From an uncultured Pelolinea sp. (GTDB taxonomy: Bacteria > Chloroflexota > Anaerolineae > Anaerolineales > Anaerolineaceae): 64,000 bases of DNA. A program made the position numbers and the translations under genes. How positions within the stretch are numbered: the first letter of the stretch is position 1; each line of letters begins with the position of its first letter. Under the pieces are notes generated by a model. That model saw only the letters and a list, made by a program, of their open reading frames with translations. It was not told where the DNA came from and searched no databases. Of the stretch, positions 3,851 through 43,383 are shown one piece after another. The stretch is from positions 18,442-82,441 of the forward strand of contig CAYLHI010000001.1 of the NCBI GenBank assembly GCA_964383575.1, in the 5' to 3' direction.

Positions 3851-3879
3851 AAACGCGCTCCGGTTGGAGCGCGTTTTTT
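3851..3879. terminator. bidirectional rho-independent terminator between convergent genes
   Basis: AAACGCGCTCC-GGTT-GGAGCGCGTTT is a perfect 11-bp stem, flanked by A-run/T-run. It abuts the polB stop codon (3878..3880). Confidence 0.7.
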
Positions 3880-6422: not shown

Positions 6423-6968
6423 TCAGGCCTCCTCTTCCCACAGTGCCGGCATTTTAGGGGCAGGCAGCGCTTCCAGCTGCCAGGAACCGCCGGCAGCCGC
6501 CTGGAGGGCATCCGCCAGCACTCCTTTTTCCGCACACAACAGGGCTGGCAGCTTAGCACTGACCACCACGGGGGCAAACTGGCTGAGGCGCTTGAGGTGG
6601 AGGATGCAGCCCGCCAGCAGGCGCTGGCTTTCGGCAAGCCGGACATTATCATCATAGAACGCTGCCAACAGGTCGATCACCAGAGTAGGCAGACCATCAG
6701 CGGGGGTTTCCGCCAGCAGTGCCGCCATCTGGCAGCAGGTAAAAGCGCGGGAGAGATGAATGCGCGCAAGCGCGCCGGCCAGGTCAGACGTGCAACGCCG
6801 GACAGCGCGCGCCACCGGGTAGACATTAAAGCGGTTGCCGCCATCCAGCACGCGCAGTTCGCCAGCAGCCGACAGCCGTGCAGAAAGCTCAAGCATGAAC
6901 GCGCTGGCAGCGTGCGGGGCGGTGAGCACCAGCAAACGGTTGGATAAAGGGAAGGTCAATGCGTCCAT
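6423..6968 (-). CDS. SulA/ImuA-like RecA-fold protein lacking a P-loop (181 aa)
   Basis: RecA/KaiC-like layout. The Walker-A position reads 'LVLTAPHAASAF' (no GxxxxGK[ST]) and there is a Walker-B-like 'LPTLVIDLLAAFYDD'. 'IHLSRAFTCCQMAALLAE...LVIDLLA' parallels E. coli SulA 'MQISQLSPCHTVESMVRA...VVIGWLA' (recalled from memory). Confidence 0.55.
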   Translation of the reverse strand: MDALTFPLSNRLLVLTAPHAASAFMLELSARLSAAGELRVLDGGNRFNVYPVARAVRRCTSDLAGALARIHLSRAFTCCQMAALLAETPADGLPTLVIDLLAAFYDDNVRLAESQRLLAGCILHLKRLSQFAPVVVSAKLPALLCAEKGVLADALQAAAGGSWQLEALPAPKMPALWEEEA

Positions 6969-6994
6969 ACCCTAATATTAGAACATTTATTCTA
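6969..6994 (-). promoter_or_regulatory. candidate LexA (SOS) box within a leaderless-type promoter of the polB cassette
   Basis: Minus strand reads TAGAATAAATGTTCTA-ATAT-TAGGGT-ATG. The 16-bp box (6979..6994) is one mismatch from the palindrome TAGAAC-N4-GTTCTA. The -10-like TAATAT (6980..6975) lies 6 nt before the ATG. The -35 is weak (ATGATG). Confidence 0.5.
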
Positions 6995-7146
6995 TTTCAT
7001 CATCCCCCACGCGCATCTGAAGTGTTTAAAAGAGGGGTGAAAAGCAGGTGAGCCAGATTTTGGGGTGCTGGATAGTGCTATCGGCAGCGGCCAGCGGATG
7101 CTTCCAACTTAGAAGTGAATTCAGAAATAATTAAATCGCGAATTTA

Positions 7147-8349
7147 TTATTCACCTAATTCTTGTGTGGTCTCATTAAATGTTGCACAAGGCTGGTTGCC
7201 GCAAGCAAGGTACTCCAATCTTTTTTGCACATCTTGTACTAAATGACCAGGCTCTACCCACAATCCGAATTCCGCTCCGGTGGCTTGATTGATCTTGTCT
7301 GGCTGCGCGATGTTGATAGTTACAAAATTAGAAATAATCACCAGAGATAATAATAAACCCAGCACCCATTTCTTATCAGAAAAAGCGATACCGATCAAGA
7401 TCATCCAGAAAGGAATTGTTGGTATCAAATACGCGGGTTCCGTTGGCAGCCGAAAATAAAATAATTCCATGCCTACGATTAACCCAATGGATAAAATACT
7501 AATCTGAAACACCTTGTTATTAATCTTTAACTTGCCTAAAATGCCTAATCGAACTAATCCCCACATGAGGATTAAAAAAGCCGGAGGGCTCCAAAAATAG
7601 ATGCTCTTATATATAAACCGACCTGTCCTTAGATATAAACTCCAAAATTCTTCCCCGCCAATAGAAGGGAAGAAAATATGTGTTTTCCATTCGGCAAAAG
7701 TGATCGGCGGTAAATAAAAAATTAAAGACAAAATTAGCATAATCGCACCAGACAGGAAAATGCGCCTTCTATTTTGCACCTCAAACATAAAAGCCCACAG
7801 CAGCACCAAACCTGCTACTAAAGCTGTTGTCAGCCGGCTGCCAACACCCATTGCCATGCTTATACCAGCGGTAACAAATTTTCCTTCCAAGAGCATCCAG
7901 AACCCTATCATTGTAAAACCCAGTGCAAACAAGTAATCCATGGTGCAGGTGGAATTGACCAGATAATAGGGATGCACCATCATGATAACAGCTAAAAATC
8001 GATAATTAGGCACATCGTATCGCTTACATATATATATAAATATTGCTAAAATCAGCAACGACATGCACAAACTGCCAAAATTGGTCAGAAAACTGCCGCC
8101 GATAATATTTAAGAAAAAAGTGATGGTTTCATAAACAAAGAATCCAGGCACGCGGGAGGGAACATAATCAAGTGTCTCGATAAAATTTTCACCTACCCAT
8201 AACACGTTATAAGAATCATAATCGCTGCCATAGCCGAGAAAAATGAAAGGAAAATAAATAAAAAAAGCTAAGAGCAAGATGTGTAAATCTTTAGATTGTT
8301 TTATGGATTTAATTGCTTTTTTGATTTGCAAACAGACCACCTTATCCAA
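7147..8349 (-). CDS. polytopic membrane protein, possible GT-C (ArnT/PMT-like) glycosyltransferase
   Basis: 400 aa with more than 10 hydrophobic segments, strongly AT-rich. Family assignment rests on overall architecture only. Confidence 0.4.
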   Translation of the reverse strand: MDKVVCLQIKKAIKSIKQSKDLHILLLAFFIYFPFIFLGYGSDYDSYNVLWVGENFIETLDYVPSRVPGFFVYETITFFLNIIGGSFLTNFGSLCMSLLILAIFIYICKRYDVPNYRFLAVIMMVHPYYLVNSTCTMDYLFALGFTMIGFWMLLEGKFVTAGISMAMGVGSRLTTALVAGLVLLWAFMFEVQNRRRIFLSGAIMLILSLIFYLPPITFAEWKTHIFFPSIGGEEFWSLYLRTGRFIYKSIYFWSPPAFLILMWGLVRLGILGKLKINNKVFQISILSIGLIVGMELFYFRLPTEPAYLIPTIPFWMILIGIAFSDKKWVLGLLLSLVIISNFVTINIAQPDKINQATGAEFGLWVEPGHLVQDVQKRLEYLACGNQPCATFNETTQELGE

Positions 8350-8691
8350 GAATAATTATTAGTTATGCAGTTATGTGACCGCCAAATGATTACGCAACAA
8401 TTTTTTTGTAAAATTGATCACAAATCCTTCCAATTTATTCTATCATTTGTCAGCCAGTCTCCATTCTCAAAAATAATATGCCGTATTCCCATTCCTCAAT
8501 AACCTCCATCAAATTAGCTTTAATCCACCGCAAGCATTGCTGCTCATTTGCTAAATTTAAAAAAATACATGGATGAGCAAAATAATTTGGGGGACTTGCT
8601 AATTTAGCAACCATTTCTTTTACCTTCGAGAGTAGTTTGAATTGTCAGGAAACACAGCAGGGATTTTCCAATTTTTTTTCCAGAATACCCC

Positions 8692-8719
8692 TTGACAAAA
8701 TTGATAAAACTTATAAAAT
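8692..8719 (+). promoter_or_regulatory. sigma-70-type promoter of the dtxR-feoA-feoB operon
   Basis: TTGACA (8692..8697), a 16-nt spacer, then TAAAAT (8714..8719), about 50 nt upstream of the ATG at 8770. Confidence 0.5.
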
Positions 8720-8769
8720 AAGGTGTGCCTAAATATTTTAATGATTTTATATAAGGCACTCCTAATAAT

Positions 8770-9753
8770 ATGAACTCGCAAAAATTAGAGCTTTCAAGCA
8801 GCATGCAGATGTACCTGGTCAAGATTAAACGTATGGAAAGTGAGTTTAATCCAGTACCTCTTTCCCTTCTCGCAGAATCTCTGCAGATTTCTCCGGTATC
8901 CGCTAATGAGATGTGCCGGAAACTAGATGAGATGGAGCTGATCCGGTACCAACCTTACAAAGGAGCCAGTTTATCTGATGAAGGGAATCTGCAAGCTGAA
9001 AAAATCTTAAGAAATCATCGGCTCTGGGAAGTTTTTCTGGTTGAAAATCTACATTTTGATTACCTGACAGCTCATCAAATGGCGGATGATCTGGAGCACG
9101 CAACCTCCAAAGAATTGGCTGATCAACTGGATGAATTTCTCGGCTGCCCAAAATTCAACCCGGAGGGAAAAGAGATACCTGCGGGAGACAAAGCCGGCCG
9201 CAATATACAAACGATGAAACTATCGGAAATGGGGGTTGGATCCGAAGGATATTATTTCAGTGATGAACTTGATGAAAATATAGCTGAATTTTTTTCAGAT
9301 GTAAATCTCAGAAAAGGAGAGCGGCTTAAGGTGCTTGGAAAAACCTCCAGCCAAATGATCATTCAAGCCGGAGATGAATTTATTCATCTCAGCAGAGAGA
9401 TTGCTGAAAAAATCGCAACTGCAAAGTTAGAAACCAACACATCCAATGACAGCAGAGACAGCGCTGTTAATAAAACCAACAAGGAGAAGGCTATGCAAGA
9501 AAAGATAATTAAAAAGAAAACATTGAAGGATTTAAAAATAGGCCAAACAGGTGTGGTTGTCCGTGTTAAAGGAAAGGGATCCATCAAACAGCGAATGATG
9601 GATATGGGACTGGTGCCCGGAAGCGAGGTCAAAGTAATCCGCGTTGCTCCATTGGGAGACCCGATTGAAATCATGATAAAGGGATATAACCTCTCGTTGC
9701 GTAAAAGCGAAGCCCAAGATATTGAGATTGAAACCAGCGGGGAGAATGAATGA
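8770..9753 (+). CDS. DtxR/MntR-family metal-dependent repressor with C-terminal FeoA (SH3-like) domain
   Basis: N-terminus 'MQMYLVKIKRM...LAESLQISPVSANEMCRKLDEMELIRYQPYKGASLSDEGNLQAEKILRNHRLWEVFLVENL' is the DtxR HTH plus dimerisation region. C-terminus 'LKIGQTGVVVRVKGKGSIKQRMMDMGLVPGSEVKVIRVAPLGDPIEI' is FeoA-like. Confidence 0.85.
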   Translation: MNSQKLELSSSMQMYLVKIKRMESEFNPVPLSLLAESLQISPVSANEMCRKLDEMELIRYQPYKGASLSDEGNLQAEKILRNHRLWEVFLVENLHFDYLTAHQMADDLEHATSKELADQLDEFLGCPKFNPEGKEIPAGDKAGRNIQTMKLSEMGVGSEGYYFSDELDENIAEFFSDVNLRKGERLKVLGKTSSQMIIQAGDEFIHLSREIAEKIATAKLETNTSNDSRDSAVNKTNKEKAMQEKIIKKKTLKDLKIGQTGVVVRVKGKGSIKQRMMDMGLVPGSEVKVIRVAPLGDPIEIMIKGYNLSLRKSEAQDIEIETSGENE

Positions 9754-9974
9754 TGCCGCTGAGTATGGCTCCAGCAGGCACAACGCTTAAGATTGTAGGA
9801 TTCAGGGGCGGCTTTGGCATGCGCAGGCGCCTGGCTGATCTAGGAATGAATATCGGCATGGAAATATCCGTTGTATCAACCTACCAACGCGGACCATTGG
9901 TGGTCTTGATTAAAGGATCAAGGTTCGCAATCGGACGGGGAATCGCCCATCATGTTTTTGTTAAACCAAAATAA
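9750..9974 (+). CDS. feoA: ferrous iron transport protein A
   Basis: 74 aa with 'LKIVGFRGGFGMRRRLADLGMNIGMEISVV...GPLVVLIKGSRFAIGRGIA'. ATGA overlap with the upstream gene. Confidence 0.85.
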   Translation: MMPLSMAPAGTTLKIVGFRGGFGMRRRLADLGMNIGMEISVVSTYQRGPLVVLIKGSRFAIGRGIAHHVFVKPK

Positions 9975-10002
9975 GTAATCAAACAAAAAGGAGTAATTTT
10001 CG

Positions 10003-10497
10003 ATGAAAGAATTTACAGTCGCACTTGCGGGAAACCCCAATTGCGGAAAAAGTACAATTTTTAATGTTCTCACCGGATCTCACCAGCATGTTGGAAATTG
10101 GCCGGGAAAAACTGTGGAAAAAAAGGAAGGGCATTTCACTCATAATGGTAAGAAGGTGAAGGTTGTGGATCTTCCGGGAACGTACAGTCTCTCAGCTTTT
10201 TCAATGGAAGAAATAATTGCCAGGGACTATATCCTTGATGAGCGGCCGGATATAGTCGTTGCGGTTGTGGATTCAACTAATCTTGAACGCAACTTATATC
10301 TGGCTGTACAACTGCTTGAACTTGGCGCGCGAGTGATTATAGATCTCAATATGAGTGATCTAGCAAAGTCTAACCGCATCGAAATTGACACCGATAAACT
10401 GGCCTTTGCGCTTCAATCCGAAATCATACAAACGATTGGGAGCAAAGGAGACGGTGTTGAGCAATTGAAAGATTTAATATCAACATATTATCAATAA
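10003..10497 (+). CDS. feoB: FeoB G-domain (stand-alone GTPase part of a split FeoB)
   Basis: 'ALAGNPNCGKSTIFNVLTG' (G1), 'GNWPGKTVEKKEG' and 'DLPGTYSL' (G3). Ends at the G-domain/helical-domain boundary. Confidence 0.85.
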   Translation: MKEFTVALAGNPNCGKSTIFNVLTGSHQHVGNWPGKTVEKKEGHFTHNGKKVKVVDLPGTYSLSAFSMEEIIARDYILDERPDIVVAVVDSTNLERNLYLAVQLLELGARVIIDLNMSDLAKSNRIEIDTDKLAFALQSEIIQTIGSKGDGVEQLKDLISTYYQ

Positions 10498-10507
10498 ATG
10501 GAGAGGA

Positions 10508-12238
10508 ATGATGATTACACAAACAATTGAGAAACGCAATTTCTCAATCCAATACGGCAAAGCAATAGAGGAAGAAATCAGCAAACTGCAAAGCGAAATC
10601 AAAAAAAACGAGCGCTTAACCTCGCGTTTTGAAAGCCGCTGGCTGGCAATCAAATTGATTGAAAGCGATCCAAACATCTCGGAAAAAATAACAGCAATAG
10701 AAGGCGGAGGCGAGGTGATTGAATTGTCAAAAAAATCCGTCGAGAAGCTTGAAAAAAGATTTTCCGATGATCTGGGTTCAATTTTTGCAGATAAACGGTA
10801 TGGATGGATTAACGGCCTGGTTAAAGAAATAGTTGACAAGAGCCAAGCTGACCGTATCTCGATGAGCGATCAGATCGATAAAATCGTCACGAACCGAATC
10901 CTTGGAATCCCGATTTTTCTAGCAATGATGTGGGCTGTCTTCAAATTCACAACCGATGGTGCCGGACCTTTTTTGGATTGGGTAGATGGTGTTATCGGCG
11001 GACCGATCACCAATTGGGTGGAGAGTTTAATCAACCTTGTAGATTTAGGCGGGACGTGGGTGGAGAGCCTTTTTATTGACGGCATAATCGCGGGCGTAGG
11101 CGGCGTGATGGTTTTTGTTCCCGTTATGCTTTCGCTATATTTTGCGCTGGCAATACTGGAGGATTCGGGTTATTTGGCCCGTGCCGCATTTGTTATGGAC
11201 CGCCTCATGCACAGTCTCGGACTGCATGGAAAAAGCTTTATATGTATGATTATTGGGTTTGGCTGCACTGTGCCGGCCGTTTATGCAACCCGCACACTTG
11301 AAAATGAAAAGGATAGGTTATTAACTGGACTGCTGGTTCCTTTTATGAGCTGCGGTGCACGTTTGCCAGTGTACGTGCTATTCGCATCCATCTTTTTCCC
11401 GCAGAACAGCAATACCGTCATTTTTCTACTGTATTTAACGGGCATTGTAGTAGCCATGATACTTGGTGTAATGTTGAGCGGAACACTTTTCAAAAACCGC
11501 GAACGCTCTCCTTTTGTTTTGGAACTTCCCCCATACCGCATGCCAACCCTGCGAAATATTTGGTTCTTGATGTGGGAGAGAACTTCTGCATTTGTGCACA
11601 AAGCTTTCTCATTTATTATGATTACCAGCATTATCATATGGCTTTTAATTGCCATTCCGGTGAATGGGGGCGCATTTGCTGAATCCGAAGTGGAAGACAG
11701 CAGTTTCGCTTACGTAAGCCGGGTAATTGCGCCGGTTTTCCAGCCCACTGGCTTCGCCAGCTGGCAGAACACGGGAGCCCTGGTGACCGGTTTCGTTGCC
11801 AAAGAAGTGGTTGTTGGGACGATGGGACAAATTTTCAAAGTTGAAGAGGCAGAAGAAGAAATGGCCACAACATCATTTTTTCAAGACCTTATCGAAGTTG
11901 TTTCCAGCTTTTTCTCCACAGTGGTGGATACCATAAAATCAATTCCGCTGATTATCGGTATAGACCTTTTTGAAAGTGAAGACGAAGATACAGGTACTGA
12001 ACTGATGGCTGTTGTTAAAGATCATTTCGAAGAAGTCAGCGGCGGCCACGGTGCACTGGCCAGCGTTGCTTTTATGGTGTTTATACTACTCTACACTCCC
12101 TGCATGGTTGCTGTTGCAGCCCAGCTGCAGGAATTTGGCGTAAAATGGGCAATCTTTGGAGCACTATTGGAATTGGTTGTAGCATATATCGCTTCTGTAA
12201 TCGTTTTCCAGGGAGGGTTGCTGTTAGGATTGGGGTAA
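10508..12238 (+). CDS. feoB: FeoB helical (GDI) plus membrane permease part of a split FeoB
   Basis: 'RWLAIKLIESDPNI' and 'ADKRYGWINGLVKEIV', followed by gate-motif-type TM segments. Own GGAGAGG RBS. Different reading frame from the G-domain ORF. Confidence 0.85.
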   Translation: MMITQTIEKRNFSIQYGKAIEEEISKLQSEIKKNERLTSRFESRWLAIKLIESDPNISEKITAIEGGGEVIELSKKSVEKLEKRFSDDLGSIFADKRYGWINGLVKEIVDKSQADRISMSDQIDKIVTNRILGIPIFLAMMWAVFKFTTDGAGPFLDWVDGVIGGPITNWVESLINLVDLGGTWVESLFIDGIIAGVGGVMVFVPVMLSLYFALAILEDSGYLARAAFVMDRLMHSLGLHGKSFICMIIGFGCTVPAVYATRTLENEKDRLLTGLLVPFMSCGARLPVYVLFASIFFPQNSNTVIFLLYLTGIVVAMILGVMLSGTLFKNRERSPFVLELPPYRMPTLRNIWFLMWERTSAFVHKAFSFIMITSIIIWLLIAIPVNGGAFAESEVEDSSFAYVSRVIAPVFQPTGFASWQNTGALVTGFVAKEVVVGTMGQIFKVEEAEEEMATTSFFQDLIEVVSSFFSTVVDTIKSIPLIIGIDLFESEDEDTGTELMAVVKDHFEEVSGGHGALASVAFMVFILLYTPCMVAVAAQLQEFGVKWAIFGALLELVVAYIASVIVFQGGLLLGLG

Positions 12239-12425
12239 GCTGTGTGCATTATCGCATGAGTGCTCCTTTGGCGTAGTCATCTGAGGAGCATTCATCTTAT
12301 CGCAACTTACCCTTCTTTGACTTTTAAAGTTGCATCTAAGAAAGCGTCTGTCAAGGTTTTTCGAATAAATAAACTCCTTTTTAAGGTTGTTTACAAGGCA
12401 CTCTTTAACCGATGCATCTAACCGT

Positions 12426-12452
12426 GCTCAACCATGGGCTGAGATCCCAATC
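12426..12452. repeat. 27-bp exact direct repeat, copy 1 (intergenic)
   Basis: GCTCAACCATGGGCTGAGATCCCAATC is identical to 14199..14225, which is coding sequence of the LuxR-type gene. Confidence 0.95.
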
Positions 12453-12489
12453 ATAATCACCATTTGAATCAAGGAATTGCCCATATATA

Positions 12490-12518
12490 TGAAAAACTCC
12501 TGATACAAAATCAGGAGT
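12490..12518 (-). terminator. rho-independent terminator of the radical SAM gene
   Basis: ACTCCTGAT-ACAAA-ATCAGGAGT is a 9-bp stem. On the minus strand it is followed by TTTTTC. Confidence 0.6.
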
Positions 12519-12601
12519 ATAGATTCTGATAGCCATACGATTTTGCTATCTTGTATTCACAATTTCATTTTATGAACAGAATTCTCTTTTAAAAGGAATG
12601 G

Positions 12602-14095
12602 CTACCCTGATACGTGCTGTTCACTGACCTTTCGGAAATGGAAGCCGTATATCGAGTACGTGATCGCCAATGGAAACAGATCTGGTTTCTTGAACAGAGT
12701 CCAGAAAAATAACTTCCAGTAATGCTTGCGTTCTTTCCCGAATATGCCAAGCTGAAAAATCGACCGTATTAATGCGATGAAGTTGCGCCAGATCATGTCG
12801 AAATTAATGTGCGGCTTTATTTTTTTCCGGTGATATTCCTGCAGGAGAATTTTAACGCGCTGGTAATATAATTCGGGAGAATAGATCTGCCGGATCAATT
12901 TACGATAGCGCTCTTTTAACTTGTCAATATTCATACGCGTGATGATATTAGTTGAGCCATCCACGTTGTCACCGGAAATATTCTTGATCAGCCGACCGGC
13001 TTTGCGCATGCGCTCATAGAGCATAGTACCGATTGGGGCCTGCAAGATACCCACCATTGCAGTTACAATACCGCTCTTTTGAATGAAGTCGAGCAGATGC
13101 TGGAATGTGGAAGGAGTATCATGGTCAAATCCCACAATAAAGCCGCCCTGAACCTGCATGCCTGCCCTCTGGATTTTTCTGACATCTACTAACATATCCC
13201 TGTTCAGATTCTGGCGCTTGCTGCATTCTTTAAGGTTGCTCTCATCCGGGGTTTCGATACCGATGAAGACCTGGTTAAAGCCTGCTTTGACCATCAATTC
13301 CATCAATTCAGAATCATCCGCCAGGTTAATTGATGCTTCTGTGTGAAAGTAAATGCCGGATTTATCCTTACGCCATTCGATCAGTGCGGGAAGAAGGTCC
13401 TTCTTCAGCACCTGTTTATTACCAATGAAGTTATCATCCACAAAGAATATGCCGCTGCGCCAGCCGCTTTTATACAACATATCTAGTTCTGTAACTATTT
13501 GTGCAGATGTTTTCACGCGCACACGGCGGCCGAGCAGAGCAGTTATATTGCAGAAATCACAGTTGAAGGGGCAGCCGCGCGAGTACTGCATGGCCATAGT
13601 CGCATAGTCATTAAAATTAATCAGATTCCACATTGGCGGCGGGGTTTTGTGCATATCCGCATATTTATCAGTAATATATTTTTTTTGGGGCCGTTCGGCG
13701 CCTAGATCTTTGAGAAATTCCACCAGTGTGATCTCGGCTTCATTGAGGACAAAATGATCCACGCCCTTAAACCCCTCAGATTCAGTAGTAAAGAGTGGGC
13801 CGCCGGCAACAACTTTTACGCCGATTTCATTGCAGCGGCGGATCACTTCTTTGGCTGATTCACGCTGGACGGTCATTGCGGAAATAAAAATAAAATCCGC
13901 CCATGCCAGATCCCTATCTTTTAACCGCTGACAATTCATATCGACCAGCTTCCTTTCCCATTCCGCCGGCAGCATGCTTGCAATTGTCAGCAAACCCAGC
14001 GGCGGGGAGGAGGCTTTCTTATGAATAAACTTCAATGCGTATTTGAAACTCCAGAATGTATCTGGAAATTCAGGATATATCAGTAATATTTTCAT
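12602..14095 (-). CDS. B12-binding-domain radical SAM protein (with DUF4070-like C-terminus)
   Basis: N-terminal cobalamin-binding-like 'MKILLIYPEFPDTFWSF...PPLGLLTIASMLP'. Radical SAM cluster 'YSRGCPFNCDFCN' (CxxxCxxC). Confidence 0.85.
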   Translation of the reverse strand: MKILLIYPEFPDTFWSFKYALKFIHKKASSPPLGLLTIASMLPAEWERKLVDMNCQRLKDRDLAWADFIFISAMTVQRESAKEVIRRCNEIGVKVVAGGPLFTTESEGFKGVDHFVLNEAEITLVEFLKDLGAERPQKKYITDKYADMHKTPPPMWNLINFNDYATMAMQYSRGCPFNCDFCNITALLGRRVRVKTSAQIVTELDMLYKSGWRSGIFFVDDNFIGNKQVLKKDLLPALIEWRKDKSGIYFHTEASINLADDSELMELMVKAGFNQVFIGIETPDESNLKECSKRQNLNRDMLVDVRKIQRAGMQVQGGFIVGFDHDTPSTFQHLLDFIQKSGIVTAMVGILQAPIGTMLYERMRKAGRLIKNISGDNVDGSTNIITRMNIDKLKERYRKLIRQIYSPELYYQRVKILLQEYHRKKIKPHINFDMIWRNFIALIRSIFQLGIFGKERKHYWKLFFWTLFKKPDLFPLAITYSIYGFHFRKVSEQHVSG

Positions 14096-14171: not shown

Positions 14172-14600
14172 TCATTTCCAGATAGGAGACCATTCGCCGC
14201 TCAACCATGGGCTGAGATCCCAATCGGCGAGCAGCCGGCACAGCTCGCGGCGCGAGGAAAGATTGAATTTACGCAGGATATGGCGGACATGGGTCTTAAC
14301 CGTTTCCGGCGAAACCACCAGCTTAGCTGCAATCTGGCGCCCGGTCAGATCGGCACACACAAGAGCAGCCACCTGCTTCTCGCGTGGGGAGAGCGCGTCC
14401 CAACTGCGATGGGCGCGGTCCATCTGGCAGCGGTTCTTGACCGCCTGATCCAGCAGGATAAGGATCATTTCATCCGGCTGATGCCCTTCACGCACGGATA
14501 GGTCCTGTACCGAACGCAGCAGATCATCATCAGCCCTATCGGATATACGACTTATGTCTGCGCGCTCAATTACTTCCTGAAGCTGCTGCCAGAGTGTCAT
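14172..14600 (-). CDS. LuxR/GerE-family HTH transcriptional regulator (no receiver domain)
   Basis: 'LSPREKQVAALVCADLTGRQIAAKLVVSPETVKTHVRHILRKFNLSSRRELCRLL'. GC-rich compared with the adjacent 7-kb block. Confidence 0.85.
   Translation of the reverse strand: MTLWQQLQEVIERADISRISDRADDDLLRSVQDLSVREGHQPDEMILILLDQAVKNRCQMDRAHRSWDALSPREKQVAALVCADLTGRQIAAKLVVSPETVKTHVRHILRKFNLSSRRELCRLLADWDLSPWLSGEWSPIWK
14199..14225. repeat. 27-bp exact direct repeat, copy 2 (inside the LuxR-type CDS, encodes DWDLSPWLS)
   Basis: Identical to 12426..12452. Confidence 0.95.
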
Positions 14601-14635
14601 GCAGTCATTATATAGAATTTATGTTCTATTGTCAA
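14601..14635 (-). promoter_or_regulatory. consensus leaderless promoter with SOS-like palindrome filling the spacer
   Basis: Minus strand reads TTGACA-ATAGAACATAAATTCTA-TATAAT-GACTGC-ATG. It has a perfect -35 and -10 with a 17-nt spacer. The ATG is 6 nt after the -10. The spacer carries TAGAACATAAATTCTA (14628..14613). Confidence 0.65.
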
Positions 14636-42018: not shown

Positions 42019-43383
42019 TTATTTCTTCAAATGTTCAAGGAATTTTTTTATCCTGGTTTCATATCCTTCATCCGATGGTTGAAAGAACTTCTTCCCCTGC
42101 ACAGAATCTGGCAGGTACTGCTGCTCGGTGAAGTGCCCCGCGTAATCATGCGGATATTTGTATCCTTTTCCATGCCCGAACCCTTTGGCATCCCGATTGG
42201 CGTCCATCAGGTGGATCGGAACTGGCTGGGCGCCTTCTTCTTCAATCAATTTGGCTGCCTTAAAATAACCCAGAGCTGAATTCGATTTTGGCGCTGTGGC
42301 AAGATAGAGGGTCGCTTCTACGATAGGGTAAATACCTTCCGGCAAACCCACATATTCAAAGGCAGAAGCAGCAGCTGACGCTACCTGGAGTGCCTGCGGG
42401 TCCGCCAGTCCAATGTCCTCACCAGCAAGGATCAGCAAACGGCGGAGGATGAAGCGCAGGTCTTCCCCTGCTTTGATCATTTTAGCCAGCCAGTAGAGCG
42501 CCGCATCCGGGTCTGAGCCGCGTACCGATTTTATGAAAGCAGAAATTGTATCGTAATGCTCGTCCATATTCTTGTCATAGCGGATGGCCCGCCGCTGGAT
42601 GGAATCCTGTGCAATTTGCAGATCTATGATAACCACACCCGATGGGTCCGGTTCGGTTGATTCAACCGCCAGTTCCAATGCATTTAACAAACTCCGCGCA
42701 TCACCATTTGCCATATTGACAAGATGTGCCTTTGCTTCATCACCTGCCTTGATCTTCTTTTTCCCATAACCCCGATCTGCATCCGCCAGCGCCCGGTCAA
42801 AGATAATCGATAACTGCTCATTACTAAGCGGCTTAAGGTTAAAGATGCGGGAACGGGAGACTAACGCTGGTATGACATCAAAATATGGATTCTGTGTGGT
42901 CGCGCCAATGAGAATAATGAGCCCAGATTCAATGCTTGGCAGCAGTGCGTCCTGCTGGGCACGGTTCCAACGGTGGACTTCATCCACAAAAAGGATCGTG
43001 CGTTTATTATACAAACGCCGGCGGTCACGGGCTTCTGCAATCACCGCACGGAGTTCGCTTTTACCTGCCATTACTGCAGACATGGTCGCGAAATACGATC
43101 GGCTGTAATTTGCAATCAAGCGCGCCAGAGTGGTCTTTCCAGAACCGGGAGGCCCACATAAAATGATTGAGGAGAATAACCGGTCAGCTTTCACCGCCCG
43201 CCGCAGCAAACGCCCTTCACCAATGATCTCCTCCTGCCCGATGAATTCTTCCAACGTCCGCGGCCGCATGCGGGCTGCCAGCGGCGCTTCCGTCTTCATC
43301 CGCTCATCCATGGCATGGTCAAATAAATCCATACGGTCCTTGCCTTTCCTCCAGCCGATTTGTTTCATAGAACGCTTGTCCAA
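42019..43383 (-). CDS. rarA: replication-associated recombination protein A (AAA+ ATPase)
   Basis: 'PLAARMRPRTLEEFIGQ', 'GPPGSGKTTLARLIA' and 'FVDEVHRWNRAQQD'. The likelier start is MDLFDH (43332). Confidence 0.9.
   Translation of the reverse strand: MDKRSMKQIGWRKGKDRMDLFDHAMDERMKTEAPLAARMRPRTLEEFIGQEEIIGEGRLLRRAVKADRLFSSIILCGPPGSGKTTLARLIANYSRSYFATMSAVMAGKSELRAVIAEARDRRRLYNKRTILFVDEVHRWNRAQQDALLPSIESGLIILIGATTQNPYFDVIPALVSRSRIFNLKPLSNEQLSIIFDRALADADRGYGKKKIKAGDEAKAHLVNMANGDARSLLNALELAVESTEPDPSGVVIIDLQIAQDSIQRRAIRYDKNMDEHYDTISAFIKSVRGSDPDAALYWLAKMIKAGEDLRFILRRLLILAGEDIGLADPQALQVASAAASAFEYVGLPEGIYPIVEATLYLATAPKSNSALGYFKAAKLIEEEGAQPVPIHLMDANRDAKGFGHGKGYKYPHDYAGHFTEQQYLPDSVQGKKFFQPSDEGYETRIKKFLEHLKK

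Follow-up and report, generated by a model that had tools for sequence, protein, structure and literature searches.

LexA-box-like palindromes in two predicted leaderless promoters of a PolB2 mutasome cassette and its LuxR/GerE-type regulator gene in Anaerolineae

Introduction

Two studies, one by Makarova et al. in 2014 (PMC4104785) and one by Timinskas et al. in 2025 (PMC11791011), describe a bacterial PolB2 mutasome operon comprising iRadA, which lacks the Walker A motif, the small protein PPB2 (so named, like iRadA, in PMC11791011, and designated arCOG07300 in PMC4104785) and the polymerase PolB2, with YVD in place of DxD. Anaerolineae, Pelolinea among them, are listed as hosts of this operon and Pelolinea submarina as a carrier (PMC11791011), and in other bacterial phyla lexA is a frequent neighbor, taken as a sign of control by DNA damage (PMC4104785, PMC11791011). 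The promoters and operators of the operon were not analysed in either study, and for neighbors with a GerE domain nothing beyond their number, 131, is given (supplementary Table S1 of PMC11791011). Here we examine a stretch of 64,000 nucleotides from an uncultured Pelolinea sp. (contig CAYLHI010000001.1, positions 18,442 to 82,441; hereafter the window), in which the same three genes in the same order and a LuxR/GerE-type regulator gene are each preceded, on the minus strand, by a promoter that encloses a 16-bp palindrome.

SOS boxes ahead of translesion polymerase operons are textbook knowledge, and in the lexA2-headed form lexA2-imuA-imuB-dnaE2 the first gene is a regulator encoded by the cassette itself. 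The imuA-imuB-dnaE2 cassette is under LexA control (PMC3323433). Like these two arrangements and E. coli umuDC and polB, the locus described here would be a translesion polymerase operon silenced by an SOS operator; however, cassettes of the imuA-imuB-dnaE2 type carry a C- or Y-family polymerase where this one carries the B-family PolB2, and the lexA2-headed ones encode a LexA paralog where this one encodes a LuxR/GerE-type protein without a peptidase domain. The homologous archaeal polymerase, Sulfolobus Dpo2, is damage-induced and has the same partner proteins (PMC11791011, PMC8764526), but it involves Orc1-2-type factors and archaeal promoters rather than a bacterial sigma-70 promoter and operator.

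Both the PolB2 operon and its association with lexA have been published before, and the control logic considered below is familiar rather than a new kind of system. What is defined here beyond the published operon is a regulator gene, two promoter types and their putative operators; the new elements are these operators, a conserved promoter design predicted to give leaderless mRNAs, and a narrow LuxR/GerE-type regulator as integral first gene of the Anaerolineae cassette. We consider it fairly probable that the palindromes are operators of the SOS repressor, most probably LexA, on both promoters of a regulator-PolB2 unit that an insertion has split.

Results

Two palindromes in promoter spacers

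Minus-strand positions 14635..14598 read TTGACA-A-TAGAACATAAATTCTA-TATAAT-GACTGC-ATG, in agreement with the sequence-only reading that had preceded this analysis, which placed a consensus TTGACA/TATAAT pair with a 17-nt spacer 6 nt before the ATG of the LuxR-type gene; this promoter (P1, 14635..14607) is the sole 12/12 match to the sigma-70 consensus in a 12-kb scan. Ahead of iRadA, the first cassette gene, minus-strand positions 6994..6966 read TAGAATAAATGTTCTA-ATAT-TAGGGT-ATG, and the TAATAT box recognized earlier does lie 6 nt before the ATG. Both spacers hold a palindrome, as had been claimed, but the two promoters are not of one kind, since the second (P2) belongs to a different conserved type without a consensus -35.

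The motif search proposed with the sequence-only reading was run on the 64-kb window. At no more than one mismatch, TAGAAY-N4-RTTCTA matched twice, at the two palindromes (0.33 matches expected; two or more in 0 of 100 shuffles), whereas the bare core GAAC-N4-GTTC, at the same tolerance, occurred 19 times against 19.8 expected and is thus at background; the signal therefore resides in the extended 16-mer and its position. The cores of the window sites, GAAC-ATAA-ATTC and GAAC-ATTT-ATTC, each combine one perfect half, one half with a single G-to-A change and an AT-rich center, while the sites of orthologous cassettes are mostly perfect GAAC-N4-GTTC. Under a cassette-derived weight matrix operator 1 (P1) scores 22 bits.

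Conservation of P1 was followed in 80 related Anaerolineae loci. Searching both strands of 1.3 Mb for the composite TTG[AC][CA]-N(2-5)-GAA[CT]-N4-[GA]T[TG]C-N(2-4)-TAnnnT returned 63 matches, one in the window and one in each of 62 of the 80 loci, all of them at the head of the cassette and none elsewhere; sequence outside this promoter-operator is not conserved across the loci. Where the LuxR-type gene adjoins iRadA, the operator precedes the LuxR-type gene in 35 of 36 loci, the exception (L005) carrying a one-base variant, GAAA for GAAC; in 26 loci without an adjacent LuxR-type gene the P1 operator stands directly upstream of iRadA.

In 26 loci the offset of the ATG from GAAC comes to exactly 26 nt, the sum of the operator, TA, a -10 hexamer and the 6 nt that precede the start codon; a usable Shine-Dalgarno sequence is absent at both P1 and P2. 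The mRNAs of both promoters are probably leaderless, the geometry of -10 box, 6 nt and ATG fitting a start at the A of the start codon. The earlier proposal of leaderless starts thereby gains from comparison, with the -10 box exactly 6 nt from the start codon at 26 P1 and 48 P2 loci, but it does not hold throughout: in 13 loci P1 sits 35-45 nt further upstream and is followed by a leader with AAAGG, so that the leaderless form is common and not obligatory.

Several loci carry more than one operator. In three of them two copies lie 27-28 nt apart, one in the spacer and one downstream of the -10 box (L014 9549/9577, L016 9920/9947, L021 9918/9946), and in two others the copies overlap by 2 nt (L046 2804/2818, L050 9902/9916). 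Upstream of iRadA in L067 (about 9900-10000) the unit CCGCCGGATGTTCTATAT occurs three times in tandem, giving three copies of the half-site plus -10 edge GTTCTATAT.

Elsewhere in the window, TATAAT-like boxes stand 5-8 nt before the start of other genes that lack a Shine-Dalgarno sequence (for example upstream of 36233 and 25909, both on the minus strand), and an obvious Shine-Dalgarno sequence precedes 21 of the 46 long open reading frames (ORFs). As judged from these patterns, leaderless starts may be common in the source organism.

The same dyad in recA promoters

In two of the compared loci, L043 and L058, recA lies within about 5 kb of the cassette on the opposite strand, and both recA promoters read TTGACA-N3-4-AGAACATCTGTGCTA. 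Scanning metagenome contigs with this RecA gave 80 loci, 27 of them with a RecA at least 71% identical, and about 20 of these 27 close loci show TTGAC-N-GAAC-N4-GT[G/A/T]C-TA followed by a -10 box, with the dyad at the same position in the spacer. The motif, which the sequence-only reading had suggested looking for at recA, is thus present there, and both the type of operator and its position are common to recA and the cassette. Apart from recA, an operator scan of the compared loci found only a NUDIX-like gene (L087) and a gene for a membrane protein (L083).

In the Chloroflexi, Fernandez de Henestrosa and colleagues reportedly found in 2002 that the LexA of Dehalococcoides binds GAAC-N4-GTTC. 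For Firmicutes and Actinobacteria the same sequence is well established as the motif of LexA (PMC3323433), and the Cheo box of the B. subtilis-type LexA (DinR), CGAACATATGTTCG, shares with the sites of the present lineage the GAAC-N4-GTTC dyad, the A..T center, the overlap with the core promoter and the presence at recA. It differs in its flanks, which are C/G there and TA/TA here (TAGAAC..GTTCTA), and at recA in this lineage one half of the site reads GTGC or GTAC; that LexA binds here is a prediction from sequence.

A regulator-PolB2 unit split by an insertion

We identify the cassette as the known bacterial PolB2 mutasome operon iRadA-PPB2-PolB2, with genes tightly packed on one strand in the window and in the same order in 63 loci. 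The first product has no Pfam match, but a profile of 30 homologs matches the RadA ATPase domain (E = 1.3e-5), and in place of the Walker A motif (no GxxxxGK[ST]) it reads TAPHAAS. The putative PPB2 ORF has 88 aa, a small helical protein of about 90 aa being typical of the operon; it occupies the expected position and is conserved in 73 of 81 searched sequences, with no significant Pfam match. PolB2 has 5mdn as its closest solved structure (E = 1.6e-44), with archaeal PolBs nearest and E. coli Pol II reaching only 3e-4, and its motif HMYVDGLWV (HxYVDGxWV) replaces the first Asp of DxD; the same HxYVDGxWV/YVD appears in Chloroflexota entries of a published supplement (PMC11791011). In calling this gene polB the sequence-only reading was right as to family, although the enzyme is of the PolB2 type and not a homolog of Pol II. 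The homologs, and all 246 genome matches, come from metagenome-assembled genomes of Chloroflexota, the closest being Pelolinea.

The regulator was rightly called LuxR-type (Pfam GerE, E = 2.2e-16). In its AlphaFold2 model (pLDDT 89) the predicted C-terminal four-helix domain superposes on the NarL, LiaR, VraR and GerE domains at 0.7-1.3 A, the first three at 0.7 A, whereas the N-terminal 68 residues are modelled as three helices with no structural match; a receiver or autoinducer-binding domain is absent, and we therefore regard the protein as a stand-alone GerE-type regulator, neither a response regulator nor a LuxR receptor. The N-terminal domain has four representatives among 1.84 billion proteins, and the family as a whole is small (174 clusters). 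A ribbon-helix-helix fold, guessed for the N-terminal domain from its sequence pattern, is not supported by the model, in which only helices are predicted, at high confidence.

In 36 of the 80 related loci iRadA immediately follows the LuxR-type gene in the same orientation, and relatives in the clade of the window show the order cda-recO-nifU-LuxR-iRadA-PPB2-PolB2-WD40-GH-hydrogenase-like (L005, L007, L008, L009, L018). These flanking genes are shared by the window and L002, both of which hold an insert of about 7 kb between the regulator gene and iRadA, which in the window encodes a 400-aa membrane protein, a DtxR/FeoA-like protein, FeoB and a B12-radical SAM enzyme, has a G+C content of 32-48% as against 61-65% for the cassette, and leaves the operator-bearing promoters 7.6 kb apart. 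The comparison of gene orders shows that the cassette ancestrally began with the LuxR-type gene, the four genes having been contiguous before the insertion; adjacency in relatives together with the insert makes the two palindromes two regulatory regions of one split unit. Coordinates of the features are collected in Table 1.

Table 1. Position of cassette, regulator and promoter features in the window
Feature	Position	Strand	Remarks
P1 -35 hexamer TTGACA	14630..14635	-	sigma-70 consensus; TTGAC kept in 62/80 orthologous loci
Operator 1, TAGAACATAAATTCTA	14613..14628	minus-strand reading	GAAC-N4-ATTC dyad occupying the 17-nt P1 spacer
P1 -10 hexamer TATAAT	14607..14612	-	6 nt upstream of ATG at 14600
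LuxR/GerE-type regulator gene, 142 aa	14172..14600	-	novel three-helix N-terminal domain (modelled) and NarL/GerE-type helix-turn-helix
Inserted block, about 7 kb	7147..14095		between LuxR-type gene and iRadA; absent from relatives with the same flanks
Pair of boxes ahead of P2, CTCACC and TTCACCCC, with a spacing of about 12 nt	7034..7052	-	from alignment; candidate activator sites
P2 GGGGGAT element at -35 position	7002..7008	-	GGGAT invariant across clades
Operator 2, TAGAATAAATGTTCTA	6979..6994	minus-strand reading	in P2 spacer; 2-nt overlap with P2 -10
P2 -10-like hexamer TAATAT	6975..6980	-	6 nt upstream of iRadA ATG (6968)
iRadA, inactivated RadA/Rad51 homolog, 181 aa	6423..6968	-	first operon gene; conserved family
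PPB2, small protein, 88 aa	6153..6419	-	stop codon overlaps PolB2 start
PolB2, archaeal-type B-family polymerase, 760 aa	3878..6160	-	YVD replaces DxD
Terminator-like hairpin, 11 bp	3851..3876		just past PolB2 stop codon

Incomplete and displaced versions of the unit were also encountered. Nine loci (L039, L043, L047, L051, L058, L062, L063, L064, L068) carry LuxR-iRadA-PPB2 with both promoter types and no PolB2 gene; in the three whose downstream ORFs were listed (L039, L043, L063) the ORFs that follow are unrelated, though their families were not searched for. Six others (L010, L012, L017, L024, L025, L027) have a lone iRadA homolog behind a P1 operator-promoter, with PPB2 and PolB2 absent within 10 kb. 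The LuxR-type gene itself occurs in L162-L165 beside recO-nifU and behind a leaderless-type operator-promoter (TAGAAATAATGTTCTA or TAGAAAAAATGTTCTA), with no PolB2 cassette within 6 kb; in L162 the usual flanking genes of the cassette are in place and the cassette itself is missing. A complete Anaerolineae-type LuxR-iRadA-PPB2-PolB2 locus with P1 (L020, LNGC01000057.1) is on a contig whose bin was assigned to the archaeon Candidatus Methanofastidiosum; misbinning is a more probable cause than gene transfer.

A second promoter type upstream of iRadA

Wherever P1 does not head iRadA, the gene is preceded by the P2 design, in which GGGAT at the -35 position is followed after about 20-22 nt by a TAnnnT-like hexamer, with the start codon exactly 6 nt further on. 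All 48 loci fit: an automated scan for a NAnnnT hexamer scored 47 at 6 nt, and L005 (TATTAT at 6 nt) was added on inspection. The strict form GGGAT-N21-23-TAnnnT-N6-ATG matched 46 times in 4.2 Mb, 41 times at iRadA, and in the compared loci P1 and P2 never precede one and the same iRadA. The two boxes upstream of P2 in the window have counterparts elsewhere (TCACCC, GGTTAACCC or GGTACCCC, about 12-13 nt apart). On sequence comparison, P2 is a second, cassette-specific promoter type, and a new one.

In the P2 spacer a palindrome is present in some clades only. The clade of the window (L002-L007) has TAGAAW-N4-GTTCTA and the loci L022-L036 have TAGAAAATATTTTCTA (13.9 bits), placed against GGGAT; about 20 other loci that carry the LuxR-type gene have no palindrome there.

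A CCCC-loop-GGGG dyad of variable spacing precedes GGGAT upstream of iRadA. Reading CCCC-loop-GGGGAT as a terminator or attenuator seems plausible for L008, L009 and a small number of further loci, which have a hairpin and a T-run, but many stems are of 3-4 bp and the window has no T-run; a promoter element better explains why GGGAT and the -10 box keep a constant spacing. A small protein encoded by the CACCC...GGGAT stretch was rejected on three-frame translations of 22 loci, which have no ORF in common beyond the closest relatives, and a sigma-54 promoter at TGGCTC... was rejected for want of a -12 element, as judged by eye. Rfam gave no match in the window at gathering thresholds and none at E <=1 in 6850-7250.

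Identity of the binding protein

From sequence comparison, the most likely binder of both palindromes is the SOS repressor, presumably LexA. The recA operators, together with the small size of the LuxR-type family, lead us to assign the palindromes to this repressor, since so narrow a family is unlikely to regulate recA throughout the lineage. Of the two shared repressors that the sequence-only reading had put forward, LexA and the LuxR-type protein, the recA operators thus favor a LexA-type protein and make the LuxR-type one much less likely, while its proposal that the repressor occludes RNA polymerase finds support in the compared loci, where the predicted operator fills the spacer between -35 and -10. 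Under a matrix derived solely from the recA sites of related contigs, the site at 6979 comes first and that at 14613 second in the window, at 16.3 and 11.8 bits, absolute scores that lie within the range of shuffled sequence.

That overlap with shuffled sequence is one of several observations that weigh against a LexA assignment. Either window site has one imperfect half, ATTC instead of GTTC; TAGAAAATATTTTCTA lacks the C and G of both halves, the positions expected to matter most to LexA; and LuxR-type helix-turn-helix dimers, those of the NarL/RcsB type included, also bind palindromes of this size, the RcsAB box resembling TAAGAAT..TTCCTA. Searches by tblastn and phmmer with E. coli and B. 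subtilis LexA found no homolog in the window or across some 2 Mb from 160 related loci, a failure that is uninformative at the roughly 20 kb sampled per genome. A search of the accessible literature for a LexA motif of Chloroflexi or Anaerolineae returned nothing specific.

The same facts can be read as the work of the LuxR/GerE-type protein itself, as a dedicated autoregulator that represses its own promoter and that of the cassette in the manner of LexA2 in lexA2-imuA-imuB-dnaE2. Its gene holds the position that lexA takes in the PolB2 operons of other phyla and retains an operator-bearing promoter even without an adjacent cassette (L162-L165), and the TAGAAA-N4-TTTCTA palindromes at P2 preserve the TAGAA/TTCTA arms while losing the GAAC/GTTC core, a poor fit to LexA. 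We nevertheless consider such autoregulation unlikely: many related contigs have this operator in their recA promoters, as against a LuxR-type family of very small size, in 26 loci the operator is present with no LuxR-type gene within 10 kb, and the motif equals the LexA box even at its center (GAACA..TGTTC). The P2 palindrome, moreover, being missing from about 20 loci that have the LuxR-type gene, is not an obligatory site of that protein. A global DNA-damage repressor other than LexA acting on the boxes at recA and the cassette, for instance a pair like DdrO/PprI of Deinococcus, would account for lexA not having been seen, and damage regulons independent of SOS are known in other phyla (PMC8072749); but GAAC-N4-GTTC is the classic LexA box of neighboring lineages, and with sampling as shallow as noted above the missing lexA says little, so that we hold this explanation to be quite improbable. 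Least probable by far is that no protein binds at all, the palindromes being AT-rich spacer kept for promoter strength or DNA shape. They do lie wholly inside promoter spacers, and P1 is itself highly conserved; yet the GAAC/GTTC dyad is retained while the central 4 nt vary, in a region that normally varies freely, it recurs at recA with different -10 boxes, and it is present in tandem copies in L014, L016 and L021.

Proposed control of the unit

With the SOS repressor, most probably LexA, as the binder, the undamaged cell would have repressor on the P1 spacer (14613-14628) and, in this clade, on the P2 spacer and the edge of its -10 box (6979-6994); since the operator fills the promoter spacer, a bound dimer would exclude RNA polymerase. 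DNA damage would remove the repressor and free both promoters. P1, with its consensus hexamers, would then fire strongly and yield a leaderless mRNA for the LuxR-type protein from the A of the ATG (14600), and P2 (about 7008-6975) would drive the iRadA-PPB2-PolB2 mutasome for translesion synthesis.

The poor -35 of P2, its invariant GGGAT, its upstream boxes and its occurrence only where P1 does not head the cassette suggest dependence on the LuxR-type protein as an activator, which is the weakest step of the scheme. Tentatively, then, the LuxR-type protein may be an SOS-induced activator dedicated to the cassette, LexA repressing P1 and the protein switching on P2 through the TCACCC-type boxes or the -35 region, although we rate this as rather doubtful. 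In the clade of the window LexA would sit on P2 as well. The circuit LexA to regulator to PolB2 would form a feed-forward AND gate, delaying the mutagenic polymerase until damage persists; if true, such two-tier control would be a new way to time a mutagenic polymerase and would parallel, at the level of transcription, the delay with which E. coli Pol V is activated.

PolB2 mutasomes have only recently been recognised as active translesion polymerases, and their control in bacteria has so far been deduced only from lexA neighbors in some phyla. The cis-regulatory evidence from dozens of Anaerolineae genomes would place the PolB2 operon in the same regulon as recA, and the data point to GAAC-N4-GT[T/G/A]C as an Anaerolineae SOS box and to leaderless promoters being routinely used in the class. 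Two promoters and an unstudied regulator are now defined for direct testing.

Other features of the window and related loci

The next-best site in the window under the recA-derived matrix, after both palindromes, is TTGGACAAGCGTTCTA (9.2 bits, by itself not above chance), which lies on the minus strand at 43368-43383, directly after TATAAT; a RarA/MgsA-type gene probably starts about 35 nt downstream of it. Seven stretches resembling residues 22-54 of the N-terminal domain of the LuxR/GerE-type regulator occur in a 1530-aa protein (P0242), the sole match outside the small regulator family.

FeoB of the inserted block appears divided into two ORFs on the plus strand, 10 nt apart, encoding a 164-aa G-domain (10003-10497) and a 576-aa membrane part (10508-12238); a frameshift, a pseudogene and a natural split are all conceivable. 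In the loci L005-L008 and L018 the stretch from the regulator gene to iRadA contains, by eye, the C-terminal part of a frame resembling an MntP-type manganese exporter, and L162 has a gene with a Pfam Mntp match in the corresponding region; from this remnant, the gap between regulator gene and iRadA would already have held foreign sequence in the clade of the window.

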